Assembly: GCA_963422685.1 (NCBI GenBank)
Contig: OY730442.1
Location: 2,695,847 to 2,759,846 of the forward strand
Length of the DNA: 64,000 nucleotides
Source: Arenicellales bacterium
GTDB lineage: Bacteria > Pseudomonadota > Gammaproteobacteria > Arenicellales > Poriferihabitantaceae
Direction of reading: 5' to 3'
Both the position numbers and the translations under genes were made by a program. Within the stretch, counting starts at the first letter, position 1. Each line of letters starts with the position of its first letter. The notes beneath the pieces are model-generated. The model was given only the letters and a program-made list of their open reading frames with translations, did no database searches and was not told the DNA's origin. This document shows, piece after piece, positions 12,986 to 41,353 of this stretch.

Positions 12986-14935
<1,950 letters not shown>

Positions 14936-14960
14936 ATATGAACCGTATACAGACAGAGAA

Positions 14961-17380: not shown

Positions 17381-17451
17381 TAGTTATATTCAAGTCATAC
17401 TTTTAAATTAGATTTTAACTATTTGATTTTCATTTTTCTTTTCTTAAATAT

Positions 17452-19301: not shown

Positions 19302-19979
19302 TCACAGGTCGCCGGGCACGCCATAAGAAGGCGCACCAATCGGGTTAATCGCACGGGTCAGATAATCCTGCATCTGCGGTTGGTAGCGTGTCCAGATTTC
19401 CCGCAAACCAACCACCGCACAGGTATCGTGCCAGTCCACCCGCAAGTCCACCAACGGGAAAGGCTGTTTATCTACCACCAGCAGCGCCGCAGAATGTACC
19501 TCGCCCTGTTCACCACCGGCGTCCAGACCGGCTTGCAGTGCATTCAGTAATCGCTCGGCAAGATGGCAGTGGGTATGGGCTGTGAATGCCGCCGTCATGG
19601 CATCCGGCACGCCCTGATGCGATAACAGATTGCCCGCTGCGAGGCAATTTTTTTGCGTTGACTGAGAATGGATACCGAGAATATTGTCACCCGTGTGGCA
19701 GGCGATGTTGCCGGCATTATCTATCACCGCAAGTTGTCGAAATTCACCATGCTGCAAGCCATCCAACACCGCTGCCAGAGCCTGATTTGCGGATTTGCCC
19801 AGGGCCAGTTGATCCAGCAATGCCGGGCCCAGTGCGGGGTCGGTTATATTCTGGGTCGCCGCCGCACCCACCCCCGCTCTGGCATGGGGGCAGCGAGCAC
19901 CAACGCAAATACTTGAGGTGGTGATGGCTACTCCGAACATTCCTGTTTGTTCGCACCGACCAATGATTGAAAATGTCAC
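19302..19979 (-). CDS. DUF1028-family (Ntn-hydrolase-like) protein
   Basis: The N-terminus MTFSIIGRCEQTGMFGVAITTSS...ATQNITDPALGP is typical of DUF1028 (N-terminal MTFSI...). 225 aa. Confidence 0.65.
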   Translation of the reverse strand: MTFSIIGRCEQTGMFGVAITTSSICVGARCPHARAGVGAAATQNITDPALGPALLDQLALGKSANQALAAVLDGLQHGEFRQLAVIDNAGNIACHTGDNILGIHSQSTQKNCLAAGNLLSHQGVPDAMTAAFTAHTHCHLAERLLNALQAGLDAGGEQGEVHSAALLVVDKQPFPLVDLRVDWHDTCAVVGLREIWTRYQPQMQDYLTRAINPIGAPSYGVPGDL

Positions 19980-19983
19980 AGGA

Positions 19984-20403
19984 TCAGCTTGCAGGAATGA
20001 CTGCGGTGACTTCGATTTCCATCAGCCATTCCGGCCGGGCCAGTCCACTGACGATTAACCCAGTAGAAACCGGGTAGACGCCTTTCAACCATTTGCCGAT
20101 GGCCTGATAGACGTCATCGCGATAACGGCGGTCGGTAATATAAACCTGTATCCGGCAAATATGGCTGAGCTCTGAACCTGCTTCCAGCAGCAATTGTTCC
20201 ACATTTTTCATGGCTTGATCGGCCTGGCTGTAAGCATCCGCATCGACCAGGCTTGCAAACCTGTCAATTTCCTGACCGACTTGACCGCGCACAAAAACCA
20301 GGGTGCCGCTGGCTTTAACCAACTGGCACAAATCGTTATCCAGGTTTTGATCCGGGTAGGTCTGTTTGGTATTGAATTTACGGTAACGCTGATGTGTCGT
20401 CAT
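19984..20403 (-). CDS. RidA/YjgF/UK114 family (reactive enamine/imine deaminase-like)
   Basis: 139 aa with ...VFVRGQVG... and ...ARPEWLMEIEVTAV... at the C-terminus, typical of the RidA fold. Confidence 0.7.
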   Translation of the reverse strand: MTTHQRYRKFNTKQTYPDQNLDNDLCQLVKASGTLVFVRGQVGQEIDRFASLVDADAYSQADQAMKNVEQLLLEAGSELSHICRIQVYITDRRYRDDVYQAIGKWLKGVYPVSTGLIVSGLARPEWLMEIEVTAVIPAS

Positions 20404-20470
20404 ATTAATTACCCGAATAATTACCAGGATATCGGAGCGAAAAAATCGGTAATCGAATCAGCATAGGGCA

Positions 20471-21628
20471 TCACAGCGCCTTGCCATAAAGGTTTCGCGC
20501 CAGATACTGGGTGAACTCATGATTCTGCTGTTCAAGCCAGCACAACGGGCCAGGGCCGGACAAGGGGGAATGAACGCCTTTATACAGGCCCTCAATAACG
20601 AACCGATCTTCCTCATTGACCTGATCGAGGATGTCGCTGACCTCATTGATTAAAGTCTGCTTGTCTGCCGTGGCCGCCAGTACTTCCGGTGCTATCGCCG
20701 CGCCATACCGGATGTAAATCTGCCCGGTACCTTTCGGCTGTATCGAGATATACCACAGGTGGTCGGGCGCAAGAATATAAAAATGGTTTGGGAAAACGCC
20801 GATTAGAAAGGAAGTATTTCGCTGCTCCCCGGCCAGGTGCCGGTTATCTTCATGCGCCCGCCCGATGCGTGCGCCATAGGACTTGGTGAAAGTCTGGTAG
20901 GTAAAAGCCCGGTTCGGCGGATTTTCCGAAAATCGTGTTTCATCCACCGTCAAATGTTTGCCTACCGTGGTGCTGTGGGTAACGGGTAAATGATAGCCTT
21001 CAATAAAATTTTCTACCAATTGCTTCCAGTTCCCGGTCCAGACATAATCCTGTTGCACCACATTGACGTAGTCGGACATTCTATATTCGTGAACAATGTC
21101 ATACAGTTCTTGCAACTGGTCCTGCACCGGCGCGATATCCTGGTCCAAGGTGACATAAACCCAACCTTCCCAGACTTCACAACGAATTTCAGGCAAGACA
21201 AAATCTTTGACATTAAAACGGGGATTGTCGTGCATATGCGGTGCGCCGATCAGACGGCCCTGTATATCGTAGGTCCAGCCGTGATAGGGGCAGATGATTT
21301 TTTCACAGCTCCCCGAGTTTTCAAGCAGCCGCATCATACGGTGCAGGCAGACATTCGAAAATGCAGAAATCTCCCCGGATTTCTGGCGCATCACCGTAAC
21401 GGGCTGATACGCAAGGTGATGAGTCAGATAGTCACCCGGATTCGGGATTGAATCGGCCCGCCCGGCGCAGACCCATTGTTTGTAAAATATTTCCTTTTCT
21501 TCCAGGCGCAGGAATGCTTCCGAGGTATAGACTTCTTTTGGCAATCCGCTGGCCTGATTCAGCGGTTTTTCAGATAAATCCTTCAATTTATCCAGCAAAT
21601 CATCAAGTTGTGGTGACTTGTCCGACAT
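20471..21628 (-). CDS. Rieske [2Fe-2S] non-haem iron oxygenase, alpha subunit (GbcA/CntA/Stc2-like class)
   Basis: Rieske motif CLHRMMRL...CPYHGWTYD, and a catalytic domain with EGYHLPVTH. No reductase or beta subunit is adjacent. Confidence 0.8.
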   Translation of the reverse strand: MSDKSPQLDDLLDKLKDLSEKPLNQASGLPKEVYTSEAFLRLEEKEIFYKQWVCAGRADSIPNPGDYLTHHLAYQPVTVMRQKSGEISAFSNVCLHRMMRLLENSGSCEKIICPYHGWTYDIQGRLIGAPHMHDNPRFNVKDFVLPEIRCEVWEGWVYVTLDQDIAPVQDQLQELYDIVHEYRMSDYVNVVQQDYVWTGNWKQLVENFIEGYHLPVTHSTTVGKHLTVDETRFSENPPNRAFTYQTFTKSYGARIGRAHEDNRHLAGEQRNTSFLIGVFPNHFYILAPDHLWYISIQPKGTGQIYIRYGAAIAPEVLAATADKQTLINEVSDILDQVNEEDRFVIEGLYKGVHSPLSGPGPLCWLEQQNHEFTQYLARNLYGKAL

Positions 21629-22112
21629 GGCAATCCGACTGATTTATGGCAAAAGTATTGATAAATGAATGGTAACCATGCTATCGGTTTTTTAATTTTA
21701 TTGTCAATTGAACTGAACGGAACATGGTTAAAAACCGGAGCTTTTTATGACTGATTCTGTGGTCGAAAATAACCAGGCACCACACCATAATAGCAGTCTC
21801 CATGCGGTTTTAACAGATTATTAATGGCGGTTGTGTCGGCAGCAAGCAGAACTGCCCGCTTTTAGTTTCCGTATTGGTTCTGAAAACCGCAGGCCGCCCT
21901 TATGCTCCCCATGGCAGGCCTGTTTGAATTTCATCGACCTGCTTTTCTGTGGGTATTCTGTCCGCTTGATCATACTGAAATCTCCAGATAAACAAGGGGT
22001 ATAAACCGGATATATACGTACTGCCAACACCGCCGGTTCCCATGCGACCGGGTTTGCACGAACCCGAACACCATGATTTAAGCTATAACTTTATGGTGTA
22101 TATTTTGATGCA

Positions 22113-22153
22113 AATATAGTCTATTGACTAGGGTATGTACTTTATGGTATATA
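22113..22153 (+). promoter_or_regulatory. Putative sigma70-type promoter with an overlapping palindromic box (box 1) upstream of the tagged ABC/hydantoinase operon
   Basis: AATATAGTCTATTGACTAGG (22113..22132) contains the palindrome ATAGtCTAT and -35 TTGACT (22124..22129). An 18-nt spacer follows, then TATATA (22148..22153). A near-identical copy lies at 44306..44346 on the minus strand. Confidence 0.5.
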
Positions 22154-22270
22154 AACTCCTTCCTGTGAGAGGGGTATCCGTTGCAGTTCATTTCAATTTG
22201 GCCGGACGGAGTACTTTTCATACCACATTAGGATTACTACTAATTGAACATCCTACGTAAGGAGAATATT

Positions 22271-23446
22271 ATGACGACGAGAGAAACGTTTCGGCTGATT
22301 TTGTTTTTTACATTCTCGCTTGGTTTGTCCACTACGGCCTTTTCAGAGGGTCTCGATGAAATTCCTGCTGACACCCGCGCCAGGGTCTACAATCCTGACT
22401 TGATGGACCCGGCCCAGCCACTCGAAGCCAGCATCTACCGAAACTGGAAAACCGACCGCAAGCCGCCCTGGACCATTGGTTATGCAAGTACCTATGCGGG
22501 TAATACCTGGCGCAAGGGGGCGATGGCCAGGCTGCTGAGCGAAGTATTGCCCAAGTGGCAGGCGCTTGGCCTGGTTGATGACATTATCGTTACCCAGTCT
22601 AATCTGAAAGACTCGCTACAAATCCAGCAAATGAGACAATTGGTTGATCAGGGTGTGGACGCCATTATCATCTGCTGTTCAAACCCGACTGCGTTGAACC
22701 AGACAATCAAATACGCTTACGAAAAAGGGGTTCCAACATTTTCATTTACCGGTTACGTCACCTCGCCATACGCGATTAATTCGTCGGTGAATTACCACCA
22801 GGCCGGTTATGAAATCGGTCGATGGATGGCTGAAGAAATTGGCGAAAAAGGCAATGTGCTGGTTATCGAAGGCATCCCCGGGGCATCTGCATCGGATTCC
22901 CAGAATGCTGGCGTGCTGGATGGTCTGGCGCAGTCTCCTGATATAAAACTGGTCGGAAATATCGCACATATGTGGACATCACAAGTCGGTCAGGCTGAGG
23001 TTCAGAAGTGGCTGGCGACTCACCCGCAGCAGTTGGATGGCATCGCGGTACAATCATCTGGTGAGACGGGTGTGTTGCAGGCATTATTACAATCGGGCCG
23101 GGATATTCCGCCCATCTCCATTGGCGGCGAACTGGGCGCTTTGTGTTACTGGCGTAACAATCCGGATTACATCAGTGCCGCGATTCAGACCTGGCCTCCG
23201 GGGGATGATATTGAACTTGGCTGGAACATCATGATGCGCACCATGCAGGGCCAGGGGCCGAAGATTCAATCTATTCTGGTTCCCACTGTCAAGTCCAGTT
23301 TCGACGACATCAAGGCATTGCTTGATGAGAACTGTGACCGCAATTCAACCGATTGGCTGCATGTTGGCATTGATGTCTGGGGCGGAACGAATTACCTGGA
23401 TCAATTTTTTATGAATCCTGCGGACCCGGCAGATTACAAACCTTAA
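22271..23446 (+). CDS. CUT2-type (sugar-like) ABC transporter periplasmic binding protein, PBP1 fold
   Basis: AAGGAG RBS at 22259..22264, and signal peptide MTTRETFRLILFFTFSLGLSTTAFSEG. The body shows the Peripla_BP pattern (...VDAIIICCSNPTAL..., ...GNVLVIEGIPGASASD...). The ORF-track start at 22244 is less likely. Confidence 0.8.
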   Translation: MTTRETFRLILFFTFSLGLSTTAFSEGLDEIPADTRARVYNPDLMDPAQPLEASIYRNWKTDRKPPWTIGYASTYAGNTWRKGAMARLLSEVLPKWQALGLVDDIIVTQSNLKDSLQIQQMRQLVDQGVDAIIICCSNPTALNQTIKYAYEKGVPTFSFTGYVTSPYAINSSVNYHQAGYEIGRWMAEEIGEKGNVLVIEGIPGASASDSQNAGVLDGLAQSPDIKLVGNIAHMWTSQVGQAEVQKWLATHPQQLDGIAVQSSGETGVLQALLQSGRDIPPISIGGELGALCYWRNNPDYISAAIQTWPPGDDIELGWNIMMRTMQGQGPKIQSILVPTVKSSFDDIKALLDENCDRNSTDWLHVGIDVWGGTNYLDQFFMNPADPADYKP

Positions 23447-23481
23447 GATTTAGATAGCGTGAATAAATCAGTGCTGGAGTA

Positions 23482-25314
23482 ATGAATAGCGGAAACGGTG
23501 TAGTATTAAAGGGGCACGATGAAAGCATCTTCGGCGAACCGCCGGCGGTGCTTTCTTCGTTTGCGGGGGAGCTCTATGTCAAGGACGTACACAAGACGTT
23601 TGGCGTGACCAAAGCGCTGAATGGTTGTTCGTTCAGTGCAAATTTTGGAGAAATTCACGCCATTGTCGGCGGCAACGGCTGCGGCAAGAGTACGCTGGCC
23701 AAAGTGCTTTCCGGTGTCCTGCCGATGGACTCAGGCAAACTTTCAATTTTGGGTCATCATCCCACTTCACCCTCCGAAGCCCGCAATACAGGCATTGCAA
23801 CGGTATTTCAGGAAATCATGATTGCTGATCAAGCCACTATCGTGGATAACCTGTTTATCGGCGCTGACGGCTTCTGGACCAGGGCCCTATCGGCCAGAGA
23901 AAAGCGGGACAAAGCGCAGGTATTGATGAAGGAATTGACAGGCGGGGAGATGGACTTGCTCAGGCCAGCGGGCGATTTACCGCTGAGCATCAAAGCATGG
24001 ATTACCATTGGCCGCGCATTGTTGTGCGAGCCGAAGGTTTTAATCCTGGATGAATCATCAGCCGCGCTTGATTTCGATTCCACCGAACGTTTATTTACCA
24101 AAATGCGTGCACTGCGCGGTCAGGGCGTTGCAATCATCATTGTCACCCACCGCATAGCGGAATTAATCAGAATCAGCGACCGGGCCACCGTCATGCGTGA
24201 CGGGCGCGATGTCGGCGTTCTGGAAAAAAGTGAGATCACCGAACCAAACCTGTTGAGTCTGATGACTGGCAGGAATGACGCTACCGAAACCTCTGCGGAG
24301 CACGCGCACAGGACAGCGAGTCGAGAAGTGGTGCTGAAAACCAGCCGCTTAAAAGTGTGGCCCGAAAGCGACCCGATTGATTTTGCGATACTGAAAGGCG
24401 AAATCGTCGGCATTACCGGTCTAGATGGTCATGGTCAGGACGATTTTGTGCGCATTCTGGCCGGGATTGCACAGGCAAGCGAAGGATACCCCGAGATTAG
24501 GGCGGATGGCTCCAATGACTACGTTGCAATAAGAAATCTTGAACAGGCAAAAGACCACGGCATTGCATTCGTGTCCGGTGATCGAAAGCGTGAAGGCATT
24601 CTGCCCAACCTGAGCATATTCGAGAATTTATTGATTCCGTTGTACCGCAGCAATTCACGGCTGCCTGGGGTCAGGTTTATCGACTGGCAAGGGCTGTCAG
24701 ACGTGTTCGATTGGGAAGTGGGGCGGCTGTCGATTAAAACCGGCGCCCAATCCAATCTCATCACATCATTAAGCGGCGGCAATCAACAAAAAGTAATCAT
24801 CGGCCGTTCCTTTGCGTTACATCCGAAAATACTGATATTAAACGACCCGGCCCGTGGCATTGATGTGGACACCAAGCGCGACCTGTACAGGCACTTGCGC
24901 GAGTTTGCCAGCGAAGGGAATTCCGTGGTTTACATGTCCAGCGAACTGGAAGAATTTATCGGCTTTTGCTCCCGGGTTGTGGTGTTTCGCCACGGCAGTA
25001 TTTTTAAAACCTTTGTGGATGCGGATGTAGAGCCGGTTGGTATTTTAGAAGGCATGTTCGGCAGGGCCGGCGGTACGCAGCCATACACTGGCAGCAATCC
25101 GTCTGCCACCCGCAAAGACAGCGATAAGGGCAATAGCGCACAGCCGGCCACATTCCACTCTCCTTGCCGACAGAACGCGAATACCATCGATTCGCCTAAA
25201 CCACAACCTCTGACCGGCGATGACGTCTCCCATATCAGGATAGTGGATTTCGACCATGCTCCCGAACCGCTGACAACTGACCGCGGCAAGATGAAAATCT
25301 CTTACTTTGATTAA
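23482..25314 (+). CDS. CUT2-type ABC ATPase (two fused NBDs) with an 83-aa C-terminal linker plus conserved tail
   Basis: NBD1: GGNGCGKST, LILDESSAALD, IVTHR. NBD2: LSGGNQQKV, LILNDPARGIDV. The canonical fold ends near ...ILEGMFG (about nt 25062). A low-complexity linker follows, then LTGDDVSHIRIVDFDHAPEPLTTDRGKMKISYFD. Confidence 0.85.
   Translation: MNSGNGVVLKGHDESIFGEPPAVLSSFAGELYVKDVHKTFGVTKALNGCSFSANFGEIHAIVGGNGCGKSTLAKVLSGVLPMDSGKLSILGHHPTSPSEARNTGIATVFQEIMIADQATIVDNLFIGADGFWTRALSAREKRDKAQVLMKELTGGEMDLLRPAGDLPLSIKAWITIGRALLCEPKVLILDESSAALDFDSTERLFTKMRALRGQGVAIIIVTHRIAELIRISDRATVMRDGRDVGVLEKSEITEPNLLSLMTGRNDATETSAEHAHRTASREVVLKTSRLKVWPESDPIDFAILKGEIVGITGLDGHGQDDFVRILAGIAQASEGYPEIRADGSNDYVAIRNLEQAKDHGIAFVSGDRKREGILPNLSIFENLLIPLYRSNSRLPGVRFIDWQGLSDVFDWEVGRLSIKTGAQSNLITSLSGGNQQKVIIGRSFALHPKILILNDPARGIDVDTKRDLYRHLREFASEGNSVVYMSSELEEFIGFCSRVVVFRHGSIFKTFVDADVEPVGILEGMFGRAGGTQPYTGSNPSATRKDSDKGNSAQPATFHSPCRQNANTIDSPKPQPLTGDDVSHIRIVDFDHAPEPLTTDRGKMKISYFD
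25210..25311 (+). other. Shared C-terminal tail, copy 1 (on the ABC ATPase)
   Basis: LTGDDVSHIRIVDFDHAPEPLTTDRGKMKISYFD* aligns with the tails at 25842..25958 and 29989..30087. Confidence 0.8.
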
Positions 25315-25331
25315 CAGGCATTGAATAACAA

Positions 25332-25961
25332 ATGGCATCGAAAACAAATCAAAAAGCACCGGCGGATGGTCAGAACTTCACCGACCGCGATACAGTGCAT
25401 TTTGAAACGCTCATGAATTCGTTTGATGTCAATACCGGTGTGCATGCTGAACGCCAGGATGAAAACAAGGAATCACCACGAATGGCTGTCCCGGACGAAT
25501 TTCCGTATACCGGGAGCGATATCCTTGAGTTTCAAAAGTTGATGGCTTCCAGTAACGCACCGGGGAATATGCGCAATACCGGTCCACTGTCTAGTGGTAA
25601 AGTTTCAAATAACACCAGTTATACCGAGGATGACAACCATTTTTTCGATGCGTTAGGGTCATTCGACTGGAGAGCGGGCCCAAACGCCGGGACAACGAGC
25701 TCCGCCAATCCGCCAAAACGGCAGGCGCCAACACCCGACACCGTCAAGTATTCCCGGCAAGACCTGGAAATATTTGCCAGGTTAATGCCCGGCGCGGCAG
25801 GCAGCAGGGAGTACGCCACCAGTAAGCCCGATGCGGCGCCGATACATATTGATAGAGACGTTGGCCATATCAGAATTGTTGATTATGACAAGCAGCGGCT
25901 GGCCGATTCGAAGCGCAAAAATCGTCCGCATATCGACATGAAAATTCATTATTTCGACTAA
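25332..25961 (+). CDS. Low-complexity repeat protein with the shared C-terminal tail (candidate scaffold)
   Basis: 209 aa with no recognisable enzymatic domain. It has four in-register [FY][TS]xxDxxxFxxL[MG] motifs and ends in the same tail as its neighbours. In-frame conservation of the tail argues that it is a real CDS despite a weak RBS. Confidence 0.7.
   Translation: MASKTNQKAPADGQNFTDRDTVHFETLMNSFDVNTGVHAERQDENKESPRMAVPDEFPYTGSDILEFQKLMASSNAPGNMRNTGPLSSGKVSNNTSYTEDDNHFFDALGSFDWRAGPNAGTTSSANPPKRQAPTPDTVKYSRQDLEIFARLMPGAAGSREYATSKPDAAPIHIDRDVGHIRIVDYDKQRLADSKRKNRPHIDMKIHYFD
25377..25787 (+). repeat. Four protein-level short-motif repeats inside ORF 25332..25961
   Basis: FTDRDTVHFETLM (25377..25415), YTGSDILEFQKLM (25506..25544), YTEDDNHFFDALG (25620..25658) and YSRQDLEIFARLM (25749..25787). 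Spacing is 43, 38 and 43 aa. Confidence 0.8.
25842..25958 (+). other. Shared C-terminal tail, copy 2 (on the repeat protein)
   Basis: IHIDRDVGHIRIVDYDKQRLADSKRKNRPHIDMKIHYFD*. Confidence 0.8.
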
Positions 25962-25966
25962 CTCCC

Positions 25967-28063
25967 ATGCAGAAATCAACCCTGGGCACACAATACCGAC
26001 TAGGCATTGATGCGGGAGGCACCTTTACCGACTTTGTGCTTGCCGACCAGATGGCTGGCACGGTTAACATTTACAAAGCGTTGTCCACACCCGGCAATCC
26101 GACCGAAGCGATCCGGGACGGGTTGCAACTTATCTCGGAAGATTTGGGTGTCACAGCAAAAGATGTCATTTCACAATGCGATTTATGTATCAACGGCACC
26201 ACAGTTGGGCTCAACGCATTAATTCAGCACAAAGGGGCAAAGGTCGGCCTGATTACCACCGCAGGCCATGAGGATTCCATCGAAATACGGCTGGGTCACA
26301 AAGAGGACGGCTATCGATACGACCCTGAGTATCCCCCGGCGGTGATGTTGGTGCCGCGATACTTGCGGTGCGGTGTGCGCGAACGGGTTGTTTCCAACGG
26401 CAGGATCAAAACCGGGATGCAGGAGGAGGACGTCCGCGACGCTTGCCGAATGTTTCAGGAGGAGGGCGTTGAGGCGGTGGCGATTTCATTCATCTGGTCT
26501 GTGCTGAACCCGGCCCATGAAATCCGCGCGGCAGAAATCGTGCGTGAAATGCTGCCGGATGTGATCCTCACCGTGGGTAGCGAGCTCTACCCGCAAATAC
26601 GCGAATACACGCGAACCTCCACTGCCATCACCAATGCTTATCTTGCGCCGATTATTAAAACCTATGTCAATTCAATAGACAACTATTTCAATGAGCTCGG
26701 CGCGATCAATCCGGTTCGTTATTTTCAGTCCAACGGCGGCCTGGCCATTGGCCAGGCAATGACCGACCGGTCCGTATACGCAATCAATTCCGGGCCGGCC
26801 TCTGCCCCTCAGGCGGCCCTTGCGATATGTGCGCCTTTTGGTCACCGGAATGCCATCACCGTAGACATGGGTGGAACATCGTTTGATATTACCCTGGCCC
26901 GGGACGGTGTTACCAACCTCAACAAGAATATCGATTTTCTGCGTTACCGCATCGGCGTGCCGATGATTCAGGTAGAAACCCTGGGGGCAGGCGGCGGTTC
27001 AATCGGTTGGATCGATGAAATGGGGTTGTTACAAATGGGGCCGCAAAGCGCGGGATCAGATCCCGGTCCGGCCTGCTATGACCGCGGCGGCACCGAGCCC
27101 ACGGTGTCAGATGCAAACCTGGTTCTGGGTTATTTGAATCCGGCTGGTCTGGTCGGCGGCCGTCTGCCATTGAACTACGACAAATCCTGTCAGGTGATTG
27201 AAGAAAAAATTGCCCGTCCATTGAATATTTCAGTGGAAAAGGCCGCTTACGGTATGTTTACCATCGTCAATAACAACATGGTCAATGGCATTCGCCGGGT
27301 TTCCGTGGAGCGTGGATATGATCCGCGGGATTTCGTGCTGGTTGCGGCGGGCGGCGCCACCGGCGCGCATATAACCGCATTGGCAACGGAAATGGGTATC
27401 GATACTGTGATCGCGTCCAAACTGAGTTCTGGCCTTTGTGCATACGGACAGATTATTGCGGACGTCAAGTATAATTATATGGCGACCATTCCAGTGCGAC
27501 TGGAAGGCAATGAGACCTATGTCCGCATTAATGCGCTGTATGATGATATAGAAACCAGAGGCATCGATCATTTAAAGTCCGACGGTTTTGCCGAATCGGA
27601 CATCGATATCAAACGCAGCATGGAAATGCGTTATGTCGGGCAGATTCACGAATGTACCGTAGACATCGAATCCTTCGAGATCAACGCGCAGACAATTGAG
27701 CAGATTAAAAATGCGTTTCATGATCGCCACGAACAGTTATTCACCTATTCCGAGCGGCATAACCCGGTCGAACTGGTGAATATCGAAAGCACGCTCTATG
27801 GGCGGGTGGCGCGACCCAATCCGGCGGAACTTGACAGCGGCCCGGCAGTGGAGAATGCGCTAAGCGGACAGCGTGATTTGATTTTTTCCGATGATGCCAG
27901 ACCCGTCCGCGTGCCGGTTTATGACGGCGCAAAAATTGGCGCCGGCAGTCAGCTTACCGGCCCTGCGGTGGTTGAAGAAGAAACCGCGACCTACGTTATT
28001 CAGCCGGACTGGCAAATTGCGCTGCACAAAAGCGCATCATACGTGATTACCCGGGTGCGTTAA
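25967..28063 (+). CDS. Hydantoinase A / oxoprolinase family, ATP-binding subunit (HyuA-like)
   Basis: 698 aa: YRLGIDAGGTFTDFVL (ASKHA-fold phosphate-1), ...TVDMGGTSFDI..., ...LGAGGGSIGW... Typical of the Hydant_A_N and Hydantoinase_A domains. Confidence 0.88.
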   Translation: MQKSTLGTQYRLGIDAGGTFTDFVLADQMAGTVNIYKALSTPGNPTEAIRDGLQLISEDLGVTAKDVISQCDLCINGTTVGLNALIQHKGAKVGLITTAGHEDSIEIRLGHKEDGYRYDPEYPPAVMLVPRYLRCGVRERVVSNGRIKTGMQEEDVRDACRMFQEEGVEAVAISFIWSVLNPAHEIRAAEIVREMLPDVILTVGSELYPQIREYTRTSTAITNAYLAPIIKTYVNSIDNYFNELGAINPVRYFQSNGGLAIGQAMTDRSVYAINSGPASAPQAALAICAPFGHRNAITVDMGGTSFDITLARDGVTNLNKNIDFLRYRIGVPMIQVETLGAGGGSIGWIDEMGLLQMGPQSAGSDPGPACYDRGGTEPTVSDANLVLGYLNPAGLVGGRLPLNYDKSCQVIEEKIARPLNISVEKAAYGMFTIVNNNMVNGIRRVSVERGYDPRDFVLVAAGGATGAHITALATEMGIDTVIASKLSSGLCAYGQIIADVKYNYMATIPVRLEGNETYVRINALYDDIETRGIDHLKSDGFAESDIDIKRSMEMRYVGQIHECTVDIESFEINAQTIEQIKNAFHDRHEQLFTYSERHNPVELVNIESTLYGRVARPNPAELDSGPAVENALSGQRDLIFSDDARPVRVPVYDGAKIGAGSQLTGPAVVEEETATYVIQPDWQIALHKSASYVITRVR

Positions 28064-28065
28064 CC

Positions 28066-30090
28066 ATGCCGGAAGTCGATCCAATCACACTATCCGTGGT
28101 TCGCGGGATTCTGGAAACCACCCAGCGGGAAATGACCCTGGCGCTTGAAAAAACCGGGCGATCCAGCGTATTTAACCTGGCCCATGACTATTCCACGGCC
28201 ATGTTCAACGCCACTCCTGAAATGATCATGCAGGGCCAGGACATACCCATTCACCTGGGTTCGTTGATGCCTGCGATGAAAGCGGTGGCCGGTTATTTTG
28301 GCGACGACCTTCATCCAGGTGATTTGCTGCTGCACAACGACCCGGAATACAAGGGCAGCCATATTCTCGATATGTGCATGTACAAGCCGGTTTTTTATAA
28401 AGGCGAACACATATTCTGGACGGTATGTAAAGGACACCTGACCGATATTGGCGGGCCGGTACCGGCCGGTTACAACCCGGATGCCAGAGAGATTTACGCC
28501 GAAGGGCTGCGTGTGCCCCCCATCAAACTATGGGACAAGGGTAAGCCCCGGGAAGACATACTGAATATGCTGCTGACCAATATGCGGGCGCGGCGCGACC
28601 AGGAGGGCGATTTCAATGCCCTGATTGGCGCTTGTCAGGTTGGCGAACGCAATCTGCTTAATATGCTGGATAAATACGGTATTGAGCAAGTCCGGCTGTG
28701 CATTGATGAATTGCTGTCCATGGCGGACCGTCACATGCGCTCACTGATCAGGCAGGTGCCCGACGGCAGTTTCTCGGGCACCGCGATTCTGGAAGATGCC
28801 GGCCATGGTTTCGGCGACATAGAAATCACCGCGAATCTGACCATTACCGGCGACACCTGCCGGATTGATATCACCAGTCCACCCCAGGTGCCCTATTTCA
28901 TCAACTCCTATGAAGGCAATTCCTATTCCGGTGTGTATCTGGGAGTGATGATGTTTGCCCAGCTTCCGCCGCCATATAATGAAGGTCTGTACCGGTGCGT
29001 CACCGTAAACATGGGGGAAAAGGGGACATTGTGCAATGCGGCCGAACCGGCGCCCCACGTTAATTGTACAACTACCCCGATGGAAACCCTGACCGATGCA
29101 GTGCGTCTGGCCTTTGAGCAGGCCGCGCCAGACAAAGTGAGTGCATCATGGGGGCATACCAATGGCTGCAACATTGCCGGATGGGATTCACGAACCAATG
29201 AAGAATATGTCACTATGGTGCTGGCAACACTTATTTCTGGTGCCGGGGCGACTCCGCAACAGGACGGCTGGCATGCCTGTGGGCCGCAGTCCTGTTTCGG
29301 CGCGCTGACTTCGGGTGATGTTGAATTGCTTGAGCATTCTTATCCGATCATTATTCATCGTTACAATCTGATGACCGATTCCGGCGGTGCGGGAAAATTT
29401 CGCGGAGGGTCGGGAACCTGTTGGGAGGTTGAGCCGATGGATGAACCGATGACCTTCGTGATGTTTGGCGAAGGCCGTCGTTTACCGGCAATGGGTGCGG
29501 CGAACGCGCGCTCAACCATGATCGAGCCCAAAGTCGGTCGGGTCGAATTTACCCGGAACGGTAATGTCGAAATCGTTCGCAAAAACGTCATTGCCACCAT
29601 TCAGCCAGGCGAAACCGCAACCAATAAAAATCCGGGCGGCGGCGGCTATGGCGACCCGTTTGACAGGCCCATCGACAAAGTCATCCAGGATGTAAAAAAC
29701 CGGCTGGTTTCAATCGAAGGCGCTCGGGAAGATTATGGGGTTGTGATCAAGAATGCCGAAACCCTTGAGGCGGATAACCCGGCCACCACCGCGCTGCGCA
29801 GCAATCAATTGCGTCACAAAATGACTGCGCCTGCTGCCATTTCTGGCGCTGACCAGGCCGTTAAATTAGCTCCCGCACCGGTTTCATCGGTGAATATTGA
29901 TCGCCCTGGCGCGGGCGATGTGGCAACAAACCGCAAACCCGGTGACAGGGAGTCGTACAAACAGGGGGGCAACGCCGCTCCAAAACCGTTGACTGGCGCG
30001 GACGTGGGCTTTATTCGAATTGTTGATTTTGATAAACAGGAATCATCCGGCAGGAAAAATAAAAAGAATATGAAAATCCGCTATTTCTGA
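28066..30090 (+). CDS. Hydantoinase B / oxoprolinase family subunit (HyuB-like) with an approximately 88-aa C-terminal linker plus conserved tail
   Basis: DPITLSVVRGILETTQREM..., ...SGGAGKFRGGSG..., ...GGGGYGDPFDRP...REDYGVV is a complete Hydantoinase_B domain. It is followed by a Pro/Ala/Gly-rich linker and LTGADVGFIRIVDFDKQESSGRKNKKNMKIRYF. Confidence 0.88.
   Translation: MPEVDPITLSVVRGILETTQREMTLALEKTGRSSVFNLAHDYSTAMFNATPEMIMQGQDIPIHLGSLMPAMKAVAGYFGDDLHPGDLLLHNDPEYKGSHILDMCMYKPVFYKGEHIFWTVCKGHLTDIGGPVPAGYNPDAREIYAEGLRVPPIKLWDKGKPREDILNMLLTNMRARRDQEGDFNALIGACQVGERNLLNMLDKYGIEQVRLCIDELLSMADRHMRSLIRQVPDGSFSGTAILEDAGHGFGDIEITANLTITGDTCRIDITSPPQVPYFINSYEGNSYSGVYLGVMMFAQLPPPYNEGLYRCVTVNMGEKGTLCNAAEPAPHVNCTTTPMETLTDAVRLAFEQAAPDKVSASWGHTNGCNIAGWDSRTNEEYVTMVLATLISGAGATPQQDGWHACGPQSCFGALTSGDVELLEHSYPIIIHRYNLMTDSGGAGKFRGGSGTCWEVEPMDEPMTFVMFGEGRRLPAMGAANARSTMIEPKVGRVEFTRNGNVEIVRKNVIATIQPGETATNKNPGGGGYGDPFDRPIDKVIQDVKNRLVSIEGAREDYGVVIKNAETLEADNPATTALRSNQLRHKMTAPAAISGADQAVKLAPAPVSSVNIDRPGAGDVATNRKPGDRESYKQGGNAAPKPLTGADVGFIRIVDFDKQESSGRKNKKNMKIRYF
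29989..30087 (+). other. Shared C-terminal tail, copy 3 (on hydantoinase B)
   Basis: LTGADVGFIRIVDFDKQESSGRKNKKNMKIRYF*. Confidence 0.8.
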
Positions 30091-30099
30091 TTTGCAGAC

Positions 30100-32364
30100 A
30101 TGAGTGCGACCAATAGCCATCAATCAGCCACGGCGATCAGTATGACGGGTTCCAAAGAATCCGGCTCTGGCGCCAATACGTATCTAATGGTGCCGATGTT
30201 TATCTTTTTCGCATTACTGATTTTTGCTGTGATTCGAGGCCCTAACCTGATCTCTGGTTCGGGTATTGGCAGCGCAGTGATCGTGGTGGCGCCATTAATA
30301 CTGGCGACCTACGCTTTGACCATCATTGTTATGGCGGGCCGAGCGGGAGTGGATCTTTCAATCGGTCCGCTCATTGGCTTTATCAATGTGGGCATGATTC
30401 AGTTGTTTGCGGTCGGATTCATGGAATCGCCCATCGCCTTTTTCCTGTATGCCATGGGTGTGGGTATCGCCTATCAGGTATTACAGGGGTTGATTATTAT
30501 TTTTGTACGGGTACAGCCGATAATCGTTTCGTTGAGCGGCTATCTTACCCTAGTGGGTCTGAACCTCATTATCATGCCCCGGCCCGGCGGTGTGGCGCCG
30601 GACTGGATGTTCCCCTGGGGCAGTGGCACCACGATTTTTTCAGCGATGCTGGTAATACTGGTACTGGCCACCATCGCCTGGTACATCATCGCCCGATCGG
30701 CATTTTTCGGCCACTTGCGCTTGATGGGTTCGGATGAACGCGCAGCCTATACCAGCGGTGTGCGCATTAATCTGGTGCGTCTGGGGGCGCATGCAATCGG
30801 CGGTGTCTATGCCGGACTTGCGGCGATTGCGTTTACTTCCCTGATCAGTTCCGGTGACCCGACCCAGGGCACGACCTATACCCTGATGGCCGTAACCGCG
30901 CTGGTGCTGGGTGGTGCCAACCTCGCTGGCGGGCGCGGCAGCGCGTTTGGCTCCTTGCTGGGCGCGTTGAATATCTATTTGATCACTTATGTCCTGTCAA
31001 CCTTCAACTTCGGCATGGTGCAGAGCTTTGTCACCGATATGGCCTATGGAGTAATGCTGGTTGTCTCATTATTGATCAGCGTGGTCGTGCCGCACATGCA
31101 AAAGCATATACGCAACCTGTCACCCTTTATGTTCTTTGTGATACTGCTAACCATTACGCTTGGTGTGATTATTCATACCGCTATGGACCAGGTCATGCAA
31201 CCACTGGCCGGGGCATCGTCTTCATCCTTTGTCATACTGGCCGATGGTGGTGTCGCACAGGCAAGCGGCGCAGCGGCCGGGGCGTCCTATTCTCCGGGAA
31301 CCTATATTCTTTTTATCATCATCGGCATCGTTGCTGTGGCCTACGCATTGCGCGTGTTATTCAAATATCCTAAAACACCGATGATCGCTTTTATGGCCGT
31401 CATGGCCATCGCCGCGCTCGGTTTGATTTTCAATCCCGACTCCCCGGTCGAACCCAATGCAGCGACGATGGAGCAGACGGCGCCCAGTGAACTGGATGCG
31501 TATACGCCGACGTTCTTCGCTATGGAAACCGTGGATGCAGTTACCAATACGCGGGATGCCGCCAATCTGGTTGTTCATACCACCTACGCCATGCTCACCA
31601 TGATCGGCGTAGTATTACTGGCTTCATTGATCATTCTCGTTATGCTGCCCCAGGTCAGGGTTCGCATCAAGCGCATGGCCCTGGTTCTGTTTGCCGCAGC
31701 AGTCGCGGTGATTGCGGTGGGGGCGTTATTCTTTGAGGACTTCGAAAAGGGTTATTTGGCCAGCAATCTTTCCGGGGAAATATATGCGGTGATTTTAGTG
31801 GGCGTCGGTTTGTTCACGCTGACGGCGCCTTTGGTGCACAACAGGCTCAGTAATATTTCCAGTATATTTATCGTGCTGATCGGTGTGCTGGCGATAATTT
31901 CCGTATACTTTTTTACTGAACCTGCCGGCAATATGGATGACATCAGCGCCTCCGGCTCAGCAAGCGCTTCGCCTGTATTCGCATCGGCCGCAGAGTCGGC
32001 GCACCCTCCTGTGGCCGAATATGCCGGCCCGGTGCGAGTAAATGTGGATGCTCCCGGGATGGCGGTGCACACACAATTAGCATATTGCGCATTCATTATC
32101 GTGCTGCTGCATATATTTCTGAGCATCGCCATGGGTGAAAACAGCTTTCGCAGCTTCTGGCGCATCTGGTATATCCCCGTTCTGGCCGCATTGGTGTGGG
32201 GTGGTTTGTTTTATGCTATTGGGGTTGCGCTGTGGCAGATTGTCGCGGTGGCCGCTGTGGCCATACTTTCCGCCCCCAACGTTATGCATATTATCAGCAC
32301 CTACAGAAGCAAACAGGGCCGCGATATTTCGCTCAGCCGGATGGGCCATCATGACAGAGCCTAG
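30100..32364 (+). CDS. CUT2-type ABC permease (BPD_transp_2) fused to an approximately 415-aa extra polytopic C-terminal region
   Basis: Residues 30-335 resemble RbsC/AraH-type permeases (...MAGRAGVDLSIGPLIGF..., ...LGGANLAGGRGSAFGSLLGAL...). Residues 340-754 (nt 31117..32364) add many hydrophobic segments and Ala/Ser/Gly-rich loops with no family I recognise. Confidence 0.8.
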   Translation: MSATNSHQSATAISMTGSKESGSGANTYLMVPMFIFFALLIFAVIRGPNLISGSGIGSAVIVVAPLILATYALTIIVMAGRAGVDLSIGPLIGFINVGMIQLFAVGFMESPIAFFLYAMGVGIAYQVLQGLIIIFVRVQPIIVSLSGYLTLVGLNLIIMPRPGGVAPDWMFPWGSGTTIFSAMLVILVLATIAWYIIARSAFFGHLRLMGSDERAAYTSGVRINLVRLGAHAIGGVYAGLAAIAFTSLISSGDPTQGTTYTLMAVTALVLGGANLAGGRGSAFGSLLGALNIYLITYVLSTFNFGMVQSFVTDMAYGVMLVVSLLISVVVPHMQKHIRNLSPFMFFVILLTITLGVIIHTAMDQVMQPLAGASSSSFVILADGGVAQASGAAAGASYSPGTYILFIIIGIVAVAYALRVLFKYPKTPMIAFMAVMAIAALGLIFNPDSPVEPNAATMEQTAPSELDAYTPTFFAMETVDAVTNTRDAANLVVHTTYAMLTMIGVVLLASLIILVMLPQVRVRIKRMALVLFAAAVAVIAVGALFFEDFEKGYLASNLSGEIYAVILVGVGLFTLTAPLVHNRLSNISSIFIVLIGVLAIISVYFFTEPAGNMDDISASGSASASPVFASAAESAHPPVAEYAGPVRVNVDAPGMAVHTQLAYCAFIIVLLHIFLSIAMGENSFRSFWRIWYIPVLAALVWGGLFYAIGVALWQIVAVAAVAILSAPNVMHIISTYRSKQGRDISLSRMGHHDRA

Positions 32365-32376
32365 GCAAAAAATTAA

Positions 32377-33786
32377 ATGAAAAGAGCGACCTATTCATTT
32401 TACAAGTGGCTTGGTTGCATAATCGCCGCAATGGTTGCCGGGGTCAGCGCGATTCTAGGCTGGATAGATGGGGCACCCATGCAGCACATCGTGTTTTACG
32501 CTATGGCCATCTTCGCATTAATTCTTTGGGGATGGCATCACTGCTCGGTACGCTGGATATATCGATCAGACGAAATTGCGGTCAGCACCACGCAACACCA
32601 GCCGGATGCGGCCACCGGCCAGGCCGATGAAGAATATCAGCCAAGCTTTGTGCGTACACTGATTGCCGGAAACAAGAGCGGCGCATGGGGTTTGTTGGCG
32701 CTGGTTATCGCATTCATTGCCAGCGCATTCGTCGTGGATGATTTTTTTCAATGGCGCAATATCATCTCGGTACTGGTATTTATTGCCTTTATTATTATGG
32801 CCTTTATTCTCAATAAACGAATCAAGACCAACAAAAGCGCATTCATCGGCATCGTTGTATTGATCGGGCTGTTCGTGATTGGATCGCTGGTAGTTGAAGG
32901 TTTTCTGTCCATCCTGAACATCAAATCCATGCTGGTGTTTGCCTCGTTTCTGGGTTTGGCCTGTATCGGACAAACCCTGGTTGCGTTGCTGGGCGGGCTG
33001 GATTTGTCCATACCTTTTGTCATCGGTTCATCCAATATTGGCCTGATGTATTTGCTCACCCTGGGCACGCCGCCATGGATCGCATTTATCGCAATCCTGC
33101 TGGTCGGCGCGGGGATTGGTTTTATAAACGGCATGTTGAGTTTTCGTTTGCAGGGCCAGGCGCTGATCCTGACCTTGGGAGTCGGTTTTGCGGTTTCCGG
33201 CGGCACCCAGATTCTCACCAGCATCGGCACTGCATTCGGCGGTAATGTATTCGGAGTGGTGCCCAAATGGTTGTCTAATATCGCTGCCATGAATGGCGTG
33301 TTTTTCGGATTAGAGTTTCCGCCAGTGGTTATTATCTGGGTTCTCGCCGCAATTATCCTGATTATCGGATTGCGCAATACCATCTGGGGAAGGCATCTGT
33401 ACGCCCTTGGCGGCAGTCGTATTTCAGCAAAGCGTCTGTCCATATCGGAACGCGGTTACTGGGTCGGTATGTACAGCATCAGCGGCTGTGTATCGGCGTT
33501 CACTGGTGCCCTGCTGCTGGGATGGAGCGGCGGCGGATTTATCGGCGTAGGCGATCAATATCTATTCATGACCCTGGCGGCCGTAGTGGTGGGCGGCACT
33601 TCCCTGCTGGGCGGCTGGGGCGGTTATGGCTTCACCGTGATTGGTGTACTGGTTTTGCAAGTGCTGACATCATTTCTGGTCGGTATAGGGCTGGATTATG
33701 AAAGTCAGCAATTCGTATTCGGGTTGCTCATTCTACCCATGGTGGCATTGTATGCGCGCTCGCCGCATATACGCACACAGATCTAG
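32377..33786 (+). CDS. CUT2-type ABC permease with an approximately 150-aa extra N-terminal membrane region
   Basis: The C-terminal 320 aa are BPD_transp_2-like (...LLGGLDLSIPFVIG..., ...VVGGTSLLGGWGGYGFTVIG...). The N-terminal 150 aa (nt 32377..32826) hold about 4 hydrophobic segments and an acidic loop not seen in the control permease 44378..45421. Confidence 0.8.
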   Translation: MKRATYSFYKWLGCIIAAMVAGVSAILGWIDGAPMQHIVFYAMAIFALILWGWHHCSVRWIYRSDEIAVSTTQHQPDAATGQADEEYQPSFVRTLIAGNKSGAWGLLALVIAFIASAFVVDDFFQWRNIISVLVFIAFIIMAFILNKRIKTNKSAFIGIVVLIGLFVIGSLVVEGFLSILNIKSMLVFASFLGLACIGQTLVALLGGLDLSIPFVIGSSNIGLMYLLTLGTPPWIAFIAILLVGAGIGFINGMLSFRLQGQALILTLGVGFAVSGGTQILTSIGTAFGGNVFGVVPKWLSNIAAMNGVFFGLEFPPVVIIWVLAAIILIIGLRNTIWGRHLYALGGSRISAKRLSISERGYWVGMYSISGCVSAFTGALLLGWSGGGFIGVGDQYLFMTLAAVVVGGTSLLGGWGGYGFTVIGVLVLQVLTSFLVGIGLDYESQQFVFGLLILPMVALYARSPHIRTQI

Positions 33787-33876
33787 CCCCAGTACAAATC
33801 AGAATTTTTTCATGGATGTGGGGAAGTGCGCAGAGCCGCAACAATACAATAATAGTGAAGCTCTTAAATATGTGGA

Positions 33877-34284
33877 TCAACGGTATTCTGCCAGTAAATC
33901 GGCGATGCGCTTTAAAAATATTGCATGTTCGCTCGCTTCTTCAGAAGAAAAGGATTCCTTGAGGATTTTCACGGGTTGTCCGCGTACTCCCGGGCAGATG
34001 CCGATACGGTAGTCTTCATGCCGGCGTTTGCATACGGTTATGTACTTGCCTGCCATCGGTTGACGACGGAATTTATCCAGTACCGTGATTAAATCCTTAC
34101 TGTGTTCAATCGGCGGTCTGCCGTTTCCCGGAGGCCCGGCCACAGGATTCGCTTTATGTTCAGCGATCAGCCGGTTACGGGTTGCCGCGTCAGTCAGCAG
34201 GGGCAATACATGGGTCCGGGTGATGTAGTCGTCGGTGCTGGTGCGCCCCTGGTCAGTTTGCACGCCGGTTGGTTTATTTAGCAT
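33877..34284 (-). CDS. N,N-dimethylformamidase small (alpha) subunit-like protein
   Basis: 135 aa. ...AEHKANPVAG...LDKFRRQPMAGKYITVCKRRHEDYRIGICPG...FSSEEASEHAIFLKRIADL follows the pattern I recall for the DMFase small subunit (...F.MQP.FG.YYI...W..YRI...F.TEEEAMHAVFLRRI.D). It lies downstream of the large-subunit homologue. Confidence 0.55.
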   Translation of the reverse strand: MLNKPTGVQTDQGRTSTDDYITRTHVLPLLTDAATRNRLIAEHKANPVAGPPGNGRPPIEHSKDLITVLDKFRRQPMAGKYITVCKRRHEDYRIGICPGVRGQPVKILKESFSSEEASEHAIFLKRIADLLAEYR

Positions 34285-37089: not shown

Positions 37090-37117
37090 GGTTTTTTCCC
37101 CGAATAATCGCCTTGAA

Positions 37118-39058: not shown

Positions 39059-39121
39059 ACTGGACTCCCATTGATCGAGTTGGCCATGTGATCAATACGC
39101 TTTGTGCACCGCGACAGCCCG

Positions 39122-39883: not shown

Positions 39884-39938
39884 GCAACGCCCTGATTCTT
39901 GCTGTTACTATCGGTCTGCAAACGCAGTAACACCGTGG

Positions 39939-40793: not shown

Positions 40794-40845
40794 TTTTTTG
40801 TTCCTGGAAACGCTGTTTCAGTAGGGTTGTCTGGCGAGGTCTGCA

Positions 40846-41235: not shown

Positions 41236-41353
41236 AATTCAATATTCTTCAATAACGTGACTGACCGCTGGCTTGTGTGCGATCTGGCACCATTGGCAAG
41301 CCCTGGCCATCCCGGGAACATGTGTCAGCCTGAAAATCATTATTAACTGTTGT

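Follow-up and report, generated by a model that had tools for sequence, protein, structure and literature searches.

A short bipartite peptide shared by an importer ATPase, a disordered protein and a caprolactamase subunit is a probable docking motif in a flotillin-associated rhodopsin gene cluster

Here we describe a short bipartite peptide that ends three consecutively encoded proteins of an Arenicellales bacterium: an ATP-binding cassette (ABC) ATPase, a 209-aa protein and the caprolactamase beta subunit CapB (HyuB). The genes lie in a stretch of 64,000 nt, here called the window (GCA_963422685.1, contig OY730442.1, positions 2,695,847-2,759,846, forward strand), and their operon is, judged by its gene content, part of the published flotillin-associated rhodopsin (FAR) gene cluster. 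In each protein a flexible, non-conserved linker precedes the shared pattern …DVxxIRIVDFD – spacer – MKIxYF[D]. This tail is probably a short modular docking motif that joins, non-covalently, the ATPase, a disordered scaffold and the ring-opening enzyme at the importer, a binding role that we infer from comparison of related loci. In all of these the ATPase is joined to a multi-motif disordered region, either covalently or via separate proteins that each bear the unit, and this alternation of fused and split forms is the strongest evidence for the unit as a putative connector.

A list of open reading frames (ORFs) covering positions 22000-34000 gave the C-termini as …PLTGDDVSHIRIVDFDHAPEPLTTDRGKMKISYFD for the ATPase (23482-25314), …DRDVGHIRIVDYDKQRLADSKRKNRPHIDMKIHYFD for the 209-aa ORF (25332-25961) and …PLTGADVGFIRIVDFDKQESSGRKNKKNMKIRYF for CapB (28066-30090), each followed by a stop codon; all features of the operon given here are on the + strand. 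The list reproduced exactly the ORFs and endings quoted in an earlier account of this DNA made from its letters alone (the sequence-only reading). Each tail contains a 7-residue unit, h-[KR]-[IV]-h-[DE/Y]-[FY]-D, twice over (IRIVDFD, then MKIxYF(D)), the first copy preceded by a conserved lead, [LI]TGxD[VI]xx, and the motif stands at the end of a disordered tether of 40-65 residues. First units with their leads, identified by the ORF list, a six-frame scan and alignment of orthologues, are PLTGDDVSH-IRIVDFD in the ATPase (25207-25254), DRDVGH-IRIVDYD in the small protein (25851-25889) and PLTGADVGF-IRIVDFD in CapB (29986-30033). They are followed by the spacers HAPEPLTTDRGK (25255-25290), KQRLADSKRKNRPHID (25890-25937) and KQESSGRKNKKN (30034-30069), respectively, and then, with the stop codon, by the terminal units MKISYFD (25291-25314), MKIHYFD (25938-25961; ORF list and alignment) and MKIRYF, which has no final Asp (30070-30090; ORF list and CapB alignment). 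A strict six-frame scan of the 64 kb found these three tails as the sole copies, and a looser 7-mer pattern recovered five of the six units plus one spurious site, against 0.7 sites expected in shuffles; the sixth, the terminal unit of CapB, has no seventh residue.

Since some bacterial repeat elements append similar in-frame peptides to unrelated genes, and a repeat finder reported the tails as weak direct repeats, they could be functionless, having arisen by chance or when a repeated or mobile DNA element inserted at the ends of three genes. However, the DNA identity is only 67-83% over 18-39 nt, inverted repeats do not flank the tails, and synonymous sites differ: at residues identical between tails, between 3 of 10 and 6 of 9 third positions are the same. 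The codons cited in the sequence-only reading for such differences proved correct, and, because synonymous sites differ and the DNA repeats are weak, the likeness must be held at the protein level. Furthermore, the tails have been kept over long evolution, with ATPase bodies down to ~62% identity, they fall into protein-specific subclasses, and their profile matches are highly significant. A chance or mobile-DNA origin of the tails was thus rejected and can be regarded as effectively refuted.

Comparison of a 44-column tail profile, built from the tails, with 1.84 billion representative proteins returned 59 proteins at E<=1e-3, 10 of them at E<=1e-10. Besides the small proteins, the matches comprise fragments of tail-bearing CapB or ATPases, three proteins that are probably assembly chimeras, and four long repeat-protein matches (P0009, P0017, P0053 and P0059), of which the two inspected, P0017 and P0053, were judged false positives. 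The motif is confined to the present system: no copy occurs elsewhere in the window, and the database hits are of the kinds just listed. The chimeras (P0011, P0041 and P0057) were not counted as carriers, as they join unrelated N-termini to the tail; the N-terminal parts are glycosyltransferase-like, MoaB/MogA and a lipoprotein with a haem c site. The P0041 junction falls within GGTGLTGRDVT, which resembles the lead LTGxDV and which we take to be native to MoaB. P0017 (1627 aa, tape-measure-like) was dismissed as unrelated, being built of ~15 tandem repeats of GDVGHIEISLFERAQVE; these repeats share DVGHIxI..F with the tail lead and reach E 1e-9 against the tail profile. P0053, a leucine-rich-repeat kinase, was a repeat-driven false positive. 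A word-indexed protein search with the three tails gave no candidates, the queries being short for that index, and neither the tails, the 209-aa protein nor the five-copy proteins described below had a significant match in Pfam, NCBIfam, PHROGs, PADLOC or PDB sequence searches. The tail thus matches no named domain in these libraries, in line with the sequence-only reading, which did not recognise it as one, and literature searches on motif strings and on ABC/hydantoinase metabolons returned nothing relevant.

In both enzymes the extension begins where family members normally stop, in agreement with the sequence-only reading. CapB matches the NCBIfam model NF050157 over residues 4-576 (1103 bits, cut-off 1000) and the solved Pseudomonas jessenii enzyme (6YRA_B) over residues 3-574 (E 3e-281). 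Its body (residues 1-574; 28066-29787) is accordingly assigned to the caprolactamase beta family (Hydantoinase_B), for which ATP-dependent hydrolysis of caprolactam or a related lactam is predicted, and residues ~575-674 are extra, because the family matches stop at 574 or 576 and leave the tail outside the model. The linker (residues 575-640; 29788-29985) is non-conserved in an alignment of 11 CapB C-termini. The ATPase body, with tandem nucleotide-binding domains (NBDs), comprises residues 1-526 (23482-25059; Pfam, NCBIfam and a confident structural model). A second ATPase in the window (45418-47034), earlier proposed as a tail-less control, indeed ends in LLNYFF and a stop at the position aligned to residue 526, so that the extension of the tailed ATPase is residues 527-610, starting with a linker rich in Pro, Ser, Ala, Thr and Gln (residues 527-575; 25060-25206).

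The tail is conserved in a pattern expected of a functional element. Among 59 tail-bearing ATPase orthologues, 62-77% identical to that of the window, the consensus fraction is 0.83 in the catalytic body, falls to 0.22 in the linker (36-67 aa) and 0.37 in the spacer between the units (11-41 aa), and returns to 0.79 in the terminal 7-mer (7 aa), near the value of the catalytic body; the 11 CapB C-termini show the same alternation of conserved tail and non-conserved linker. Signatures are also specific to the carrier and hold across taxa. Tails of ATPases finish in K[IV]SYF[DE], with Ser at position 4 of unit 2; small-protein tails end in K[IV][RKH][YF]FD; and CapB tails have DVG[FY] in the lead and end on two aromatics (YF, rarely FF or FY) with no final Asp. 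Spacers are net positive in 30 of 30 small proteins and in 11 of 11 CapB proteins (mean +3.4 in both), while those of the ATPases are mixed (26 negative, 13 neutral and 20 positive; mean -0.1). The basic loop of the sequence-only reading therefore holds for the small protein and CapB, including those of the window, but not for the ATPase, whose spacer is non-basic. From spacer charge together with terminal signatures we sort the tails into class I, borne by the ATPase, and class II, borne by the small protein and CapB (K[IV][RKH][YF]F). Because each protein holds its own signature across taxa and synonymous sites differ, the tails are, on sequence grounds, orthologous rather than copied from one another.

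Structure prediction with AlphaFold2 (AF2) is consistent with an exposed motif. With 70 orthologues as input, the NBDs of the ATPase are well modelled, the linker has a predicted local distance difference test score (pLDDT) of ~30 and the tail is left undocked at pLDDT <=51; in the small protein there is no strand pairing within the tail. Linkers and tails that are unstructured and undocked on their own chains are as expected of a motif that binds in trans. Intramolecular docking was accordingly rejected, as AF2 leaves the ATPase tail unstructured and the small-protein tail without a hairpin, and for the same reason neither the ATPase body as receptor nor a stable hairpin is supported. The earlier picture of two strands around a loop is not established, since AF2 predicts no hairpin and the spacer varies from 11 to 41 aa.

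By prediction the 209-aa protein (25332-25961) is disordered and multivalent and resembles a scaffold, in agreement with the sequence-only reading. An exhaustive profile search found homologues numbering ~35 representatives at 50% identity. The AF2 model has a predicted template modelling score (pTM) of 0.20; its four helices stand apart from one another at pLDDT 85-89, and its linkers score below 50. The helices coincide with four motifs conserved in the homologue alignment, Y[ST]xxDxxxFxxLM, with unconserved spacers between them and the tail after the last: FTDRDTVHFETLM (25377-25415), YTGSDILEFQKLM (25506-25544), YTEDDNHFFDALG (25620-25658) and YSRQDLEIFARLM (25749-25787). The word-indexed search with this ORF returned one homologue only. 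Upstream of that homologue, on a 965-bp metagenome scaffold (L002, positions 1-248), the end of the ATPase gene can be read in two frames, as …RPDDLL before a stop and as TPGLTTCSNTIRIRADFQ…, which suggests a frameshift or an assembly error in the tail region.

Orthologous operons were collected by a genome scan and exact look-ups, giving ten with CapAB: the window and L003, L004, L005, L023, L024, L025, L026, L027 and L028, of which L003 and L005, metagenome-assembled genomes of Candidatus Poriferihabitaceae (Gammaproteobacteria, Arenicellales), are the closest relatives of the window. Their gene order is substrate-binding protein, tailed ATPase, small protein where present, CapA, tailed CapB, permease 1 and permease 2. 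The ATPase and CapB tails, each with its protein-specific signature, are kept in all ten. The small protein is encoded in nine, and its C-terminal unit could be read in eight: both units are present in six operons, in L024 only the terminal unit was detected, and L027 has a single subterminal unit; the L004 tail shows both units. Most of the small proteins have four helical motifs; that of L026 has two motifs and the tail, and that of L027 two motifs and one near-terminal unit followed by two residues. In L025 both the ATPase and the CapB tail are kept with no small protein, so that the ATPase-CapB pair is the constant core and the small protein is ruled out as an obligatory hub. Two side observations concern these loci: the short small protein of L027 (9862-10233) begins MSKYFKS, and in L026 a gene for an IS1595-family transposase lies between the tailed CapB and permease 1 (14450-15028).

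Further relatives show how the unit is reused and what may replace it. The same transporter family exists without CapAB, with the substrate-binding protein, ATPase and both permeases 50-70% identical to those of the window. In these CapAB-less relatives the tailed ATPase is followed by a protein of ~110 aa that consists of five units, IKI[IV]EFD, with disordered low-complexity spacers, the third copy bearing a DVGH lead as in the tail. In L017 there is no separate gene; the ATPase itself carries the five copies as a fusion. In L018 and L019 four copies occur in a 168-aa N-terminal extension of an AttM-family lactonase (441 bits, cut-off 390). The sequence-only reading had placed the tail always at the extreme C terminus; this is true of the window, but the relatives have internal and N-terminal copies of the 7-mer. 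A second fusion is found in ATPases of ~730 aa, one of which its source names Pelagibacteraceae, where the four helical motifs of the small protein are attached to the ATPase C-terminus and both tails are gone. Alignment of the small-protein family to the fused region by hhalign gave a probability of 99.4% and E 6e-22 with the four motifs in order, and the gene order of these clusters is otherwise unchanged. The helical motif was seen nowhere else in any locus examined, and in none of the five-copy variants. As a binding site for CapAB it was rejected, since the Pelagibacteraceae-type clusters have helical motifs and no CapAB. At the junction of ATPase and helical repeats, the fused ATPases P0126-P0180 carry a conserved duplicated segment, NVSKYNVSKYF (or ISDYF), which may be a relic or a precursor of the K[IV]SYFD unit.

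The arrays and fusions bear on three other explanations of the tail. The first is that it targets lipid: through its basic spacer and aromatic end, as in …KNKKNMKIRYF, a soluble protein would attach to anionic lipids, in the inner membrane or a flotillin microdomain, with no protein partner. The constant positive charge of the spacers in both soluble carriers fits such a role, as does its absence from the ATPase, which is already membrane-bound and would need none; the terminus is also rich in Ile, Tyr and Phe, and the only short helix that AF2 places in a tail falls within the small protein's basic spacer. It is the 7-mer, however, and not the spacer, that forms the conserved core, and the ATPase retains its 7-mers beside acidic or neutral spacers. 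Moreover, the acidic flanks of the units in the five-copy proteins and the lactonase extension (EFDDD, EFGMEDD, EFGKDE) would repel anionic lipids, and the fusions that replace the tails connect protein to protein, not protein to lipid. As for a terminal amphipathic helix of the MinD/FtsA type, the sole helix predicted is that in the spacer of the small protein, and ATPase tails and five-copy proteins are not basic. We consider lipid targeting improbable as the primary role, and lipid binding may be an auxiliary property of class II tails.

Secondly, the tails could serve as a common regulatory handle by which one inhibitor, kinase, adaptor or protease recognises and switches the importer, the caprolactamase and the accessory protein together. 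Both tailed enzymes consume ATP, the motifs are disordered and exposed, and genes for a LuxR-type regulator and a hybrid histidine kinase belong to the cluster itself, as do those of a second ABC system. Against this, internal and N-terminal copies and arrays of four or five are atypical of degrons or single regulatory sites, covalent fusion in place of tails favours linking over switching, and no candidate regulator co-varies with the presence of the motif in the loci compared; such a handle is accordingly doubtful.

Thirdly, the units, or the helical motifs in other variants, could act as homotypic stickers that cluster many transporter complexes into a membrane-attached condensate, to which CapB and the lactonase would be recruited as clients by one or two stickers. 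This would be a special case of docking, many-to-many instead of at a defined stoichiometry. It would account for arrays of four or five identical short motifs with low-complexity spacers, for a scaffold that AF2 leaves without a fold, and for helical and strand-like motifs at the same architectural position in different lineages. Read by eye, the sequence IKIVEF is also self-complementary in an antiparallel i+j=7 register, with contacts K2-E5, I1-F6 and I3-V4. But with two units per protein the valency in the window is low, L025 has no scaffold, and AF2 shows no unit-unit pairing within a chain. A condensate thus seems an unlikely description of the system.

For docking as such, as the sequence-only reading proposed in speaking of a docking or co-assembly tag, conservation, the two independent fusions in which the tails are lost once the partners are covalently joined, reuse on the lactonase and the FAR context are in favour, while AF2 models of single chains leave the tails undocked. 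Several points weigh against it. Since clusters of the Pelagibacteraceae type work without the motif, the transporter as such does not need it, and at least one operon (L025) dispenses with the scaffold. Within one tail AF2 leaves both units unpaired, at a pLDDT of only 45-79. Covariation between ATPase and CapB tails, tallied by hand over ten loci, is weak: R/K states at position 2 of unit 1 match in 8 of 10 and D/E states at position 5 in 8 of 10, which is not significant and is confounded by phylogeny. The small protein with its helical motifs is a candidate scaffold, and both the contact of tail with tail, or of tail with a hub, and the rationale of metabolic trapping set out below are things we infer.

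If the tails do dock, an assembly would form at the cytoplasmic face of an unusual ABC importer, in which the tandem-NBD ATPase would take part via its class I tail, CapA/CapB would enter through the class II tail of CapB, and the disordered protein, with up to four helical binding motifs, through its own class II tail. CapAB would then be held within a ~50-residue tether of the transporter, and an imported neutral, membrane-permeant lactam could be converted at once to a charged amino acid, by metabolic trapping or channelling; the lactonase of L018 and L019 would give a lactone the same treatment. The disordered protein may bring multivalency toward further partners of the flotillin/FArhodopsin membrane system. 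Two modes of binding can be envisaged. Class I and class II tails might pair directly, for example as antiparallel strands, or one multivalent hub of the FAR system might accept the tails next to each other.

The remaining genes of the operon complete a transporter and an enzyme. A periplasmic substrate-binding protein (Peripla_BP_4; 22244-23446), 64-93% identical in related loci, precedes the ATPase. The two ABC_tran domains of the latter, with BPD_transp_2 permease and Peripla_BP_4 genes adjoining, are those of a CUT2-type (ribose/xylose-like) importer; substrate specificity was left unassigned because the best NCBIfam matches (YtfR, XylG and AraG) are far below their cut-offs. Caprolactamase alpha (CapA/HyuA; 25967-28063) is identified by NF050156 (1208 bits, cut-off 1000) and Pfam, and has no tail. 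Permease 1 (30100-32364) has a BPD_transp_2 core at residues 66-322 and a multi-pass C-terminal extension of ~420 aa, and permease 2 (32377-33786) has a four-helix N-terminal extension of ~150 aa (Pfam; alignment). The extra membrane regions of both permeases had been suggested as candidate partners of the tail; they are present in all variants, equally in those without the motif, and nothing tested points to them. Alignment shows a conserved segment of the permease 2 extension, SVRW[IV]Y..D, that is predicted to be cytoplasmic. This segment resembles the 7-mer.

The FAR gene cluster has been described as an island of ~26 kb in SAR11, HIMB59, Pseudothioglobus and many freshwater bacteria, with a function stated to be unknown (Haro-Moreno et al. 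2023, PMC10308929). Its published gene list includes a sodium symporter, a dimethylformamidase-like protein, an alpha/beta hydrolase, a membrane translocator, LuxR and a hybrid kinase (PMC10308929). A complete FAR gene cluster occupies positions 34732-51209 of the window, on both strands, and the window is syntenic with a Pelagibacteraceae-type locus. Its members include an SSF symporter, a DMFA2-like (dimethylformamidase-like) protein, an alpha/beta hydrolase, an MBL/AttM-like lactonase, a LuxR-type regulator and a hybrid kinase, besides a second, untailed ABC system (44378-48264). The marker of the cluster, FArhodopsin (232 aa; 43461-44159, - strand; PDB 9R21_A, E 6e-126; synteny), adjoins on the same strand the gene for flotillin (Band_7 + Flot; 41354-43399, -; Pfam), a conserved neighbour of the transporter by synteny. 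In most related loci the FArhodopsin-flotillin block comes directly after permease 2; in the window it is inverted and lies 8 kb downstream, the inversion comprising the block from FArhodopsin to the symporter. The "inner membrane translocator" of the FAR authors is probably the present ABC importer. In term searches, the main text of PMC10308929 contained no mention of ABC, hydantoinase, C-terminal or disordered, and the preprint of Kovalev et al. (2025, 10.1101/2025.04.29.651185) none of ABC, hydantoinase or transporter; neither paper was found to describe the motif, the small proteins or the ATPase fusions.

A flotillin-organised membrane assembly has been proposed for the FAR cluster, and eukaryotic flotillin forms a cage or ring on the cytoplasmic membrane face (PMC11260169). 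Flotillin, which the sequence-only reading had named as a candidate partner, is the only cage-forming protein encoded nearby and a candidate hub for the tails. By a bolder extension of this idea, which we hold to be speculative and rather unlikely, the 7-mer would be a targeting peptide that loads the ATPase, the ring-opening enzymes (caprolactamase, AttM lactonase) and the disordered scaffold into or onto a flotillin-bounded membrane compartment; with a cage or ring of the FAR flotillin, abundant bacteria of marine and fresh waters would thereby possess an "uptake-and-trap" nanocompartment attached to the membrane. If true, the FAR cluster, and bacterial flotillin with it, would acquire a concrete code for the recruitment of cargo.

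The logic of docking by terminal peptides that replace a fusion or recruit proteins is, by analogy, known from several systems. Comparable in function are the docking domains of polyketide synthases and nonribosomal peptide synthetases (PKS/NRPS), among them beta-hairpin domains to which a short terminal peptide binds; they are short terminal peptides on the products of consecutive genes which replace a covalent link and order the partners, and which exist in split and fused versions. Such pairs were found twice here, a likeness in function only: no sequence similarity to PKS/NRPS docking domains was found, and Pfam found nothing on the tails. Those domains join carrier and catalytic modules of one biosynthetic line and are usually folded, as helices or hairpins, whereas here the tail is found on a transporter ATPase, on a catabolic enzyme and on a disordered protein, and the 7-mer also occurs in arrays. 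Encapsulation peptides of bacterial microcompartments (BMC) and encapsulin cargo peptides likewise place one short peptide past a poorly conserved linker on unrelated operon proteins with a common target. BMC peptides, however, are amphipathic helices of ~18 residues, unlike the strand-like 7-mers, over which AF2 predicts no helix, and cargo-loading peptides of encapsulins have another C-terminal consensus. Both kinds depend on genes for a shell, and Pfam found no BMC-H or BMC-P shell or encapsulin (HK97-fold) families among the 27 window ORFs scanned (16394-62282), and no BMC shell families in the lists for loci L020-L028. The tail is thus unlike either kind of peptide, as the sequence-only reading had held.

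Also comparable are EPYC1 with the Rubisco-binding motif of the pyrenoid, CsoS2 and CcmM, in which a disordered scaffold has repeated short motifs, helical or extended, and one motif is common to otherwise unrelated clients and recruits them. They differ in organism and in their target, Rubisco, whereas the present system is associated with the membrane, around a transporter. Cohesin-dockerin systems share the plan of enzymes with a common C-terminal docking module and a scaffold with repeats, but are folded, extracellular, Ca-dependent and 60-150 residues long, against a unit of 7 residues that is cytoplasmic and disordered; Pfam gave no hit of any kind on the tails or small proteins at E<=1. 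The ATPases MalK (TOBE-like) and MetN (C2/NIL) also carry an extra element after the last NBD of an importer ATPase. Those domains are folded, 80-130 residues long, dimerise under the NBDs and bind regulators or substrate, while the present ATPase has a disordered tether with two 7-mers that are common to non-ABC proteins; there was no Pfam or NCBIfam match past residue ~526, and AF2 gave pLDDT ~30-50 over residues 529-610. For amyloid signalling motifs (HET-s/NWD2, BASS), no NLR/STAND or Bell-type partner was found, and the carriers are a transporter ATPase and catabolic enzymes. With the FAR gene cluster as published (PMC10308929; 10.1101/2025.04.29.651185) the window shares FArhodopsin, flotillin, the symporter and other listed genes; as far as libraries and papers show, the motif, its carriers and their place in that cluster are undescribed.

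Several observations on neighbouring genes may be recorded. A 284-aa alpha/beta hydrolase (39939-40793, -; PcaD-like, below cut-off) is 87-92% identical across the loci compared (the window, L004, L008, L010, L017, L018, L019 and L027), while the genes beside it are only 30-65% identical to those of the window, which points to extreme constraint or recent transfer. It was seen in all motif-bearing loci of sufficient length, and not within the two helix-fused ones, L020 and L022. In L018 and L019 its gene precedes that of the motif-bearing lactonase by 3 nt, and it may be a hub. An AttM-type lactonase is followed in L019 (11101-13800) and L020 (18760-19935) by genes for an Fe-dependent alcohol dehydrogenase and an aldehyde dehydrogenase, an arrangement which we take to be like the attKLM gamma-butyrolactone pathway and which hints that the cluster handles small lactones or lactams. 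Upstream of the operon (16394-21628) the window encodes an S49 peptidase with an NfeD-like N-terminal domain, an M20 peptidase, a DUF1028 protein and the alpha subunit of a Rieske ring-hydroxylating oxygenase. NfeD proteins are the usual partners of flotillins, and the S49/NfeD-like protein may be relevant. The other flank (51222-62282) holds housekeeping and defence functions, namely UvrA, a major facilitator superfamily (MFS) transporter, a single-stranded DNA-binding protein, pyridoxamine-phosphate oxidase and the R subunit of a type I restriction system.

Transport metabolons that couple an importer to the first catabolic enzyme have often been postulated, and a molecular handle for them is rare; here a unit of seven residues marks the co-members, and natural fusions indicate which links it replaces. 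Scanning for the unit could reveal further clients and, if binding is direct, enzymes could be tethered to transporters by using the unit as a very small, genetically encoded tag. Clusters of the FAR type are widespread in marine bacteria, and the motif provides an experimental entry point to a cluster whose function has been stated to be unknown.

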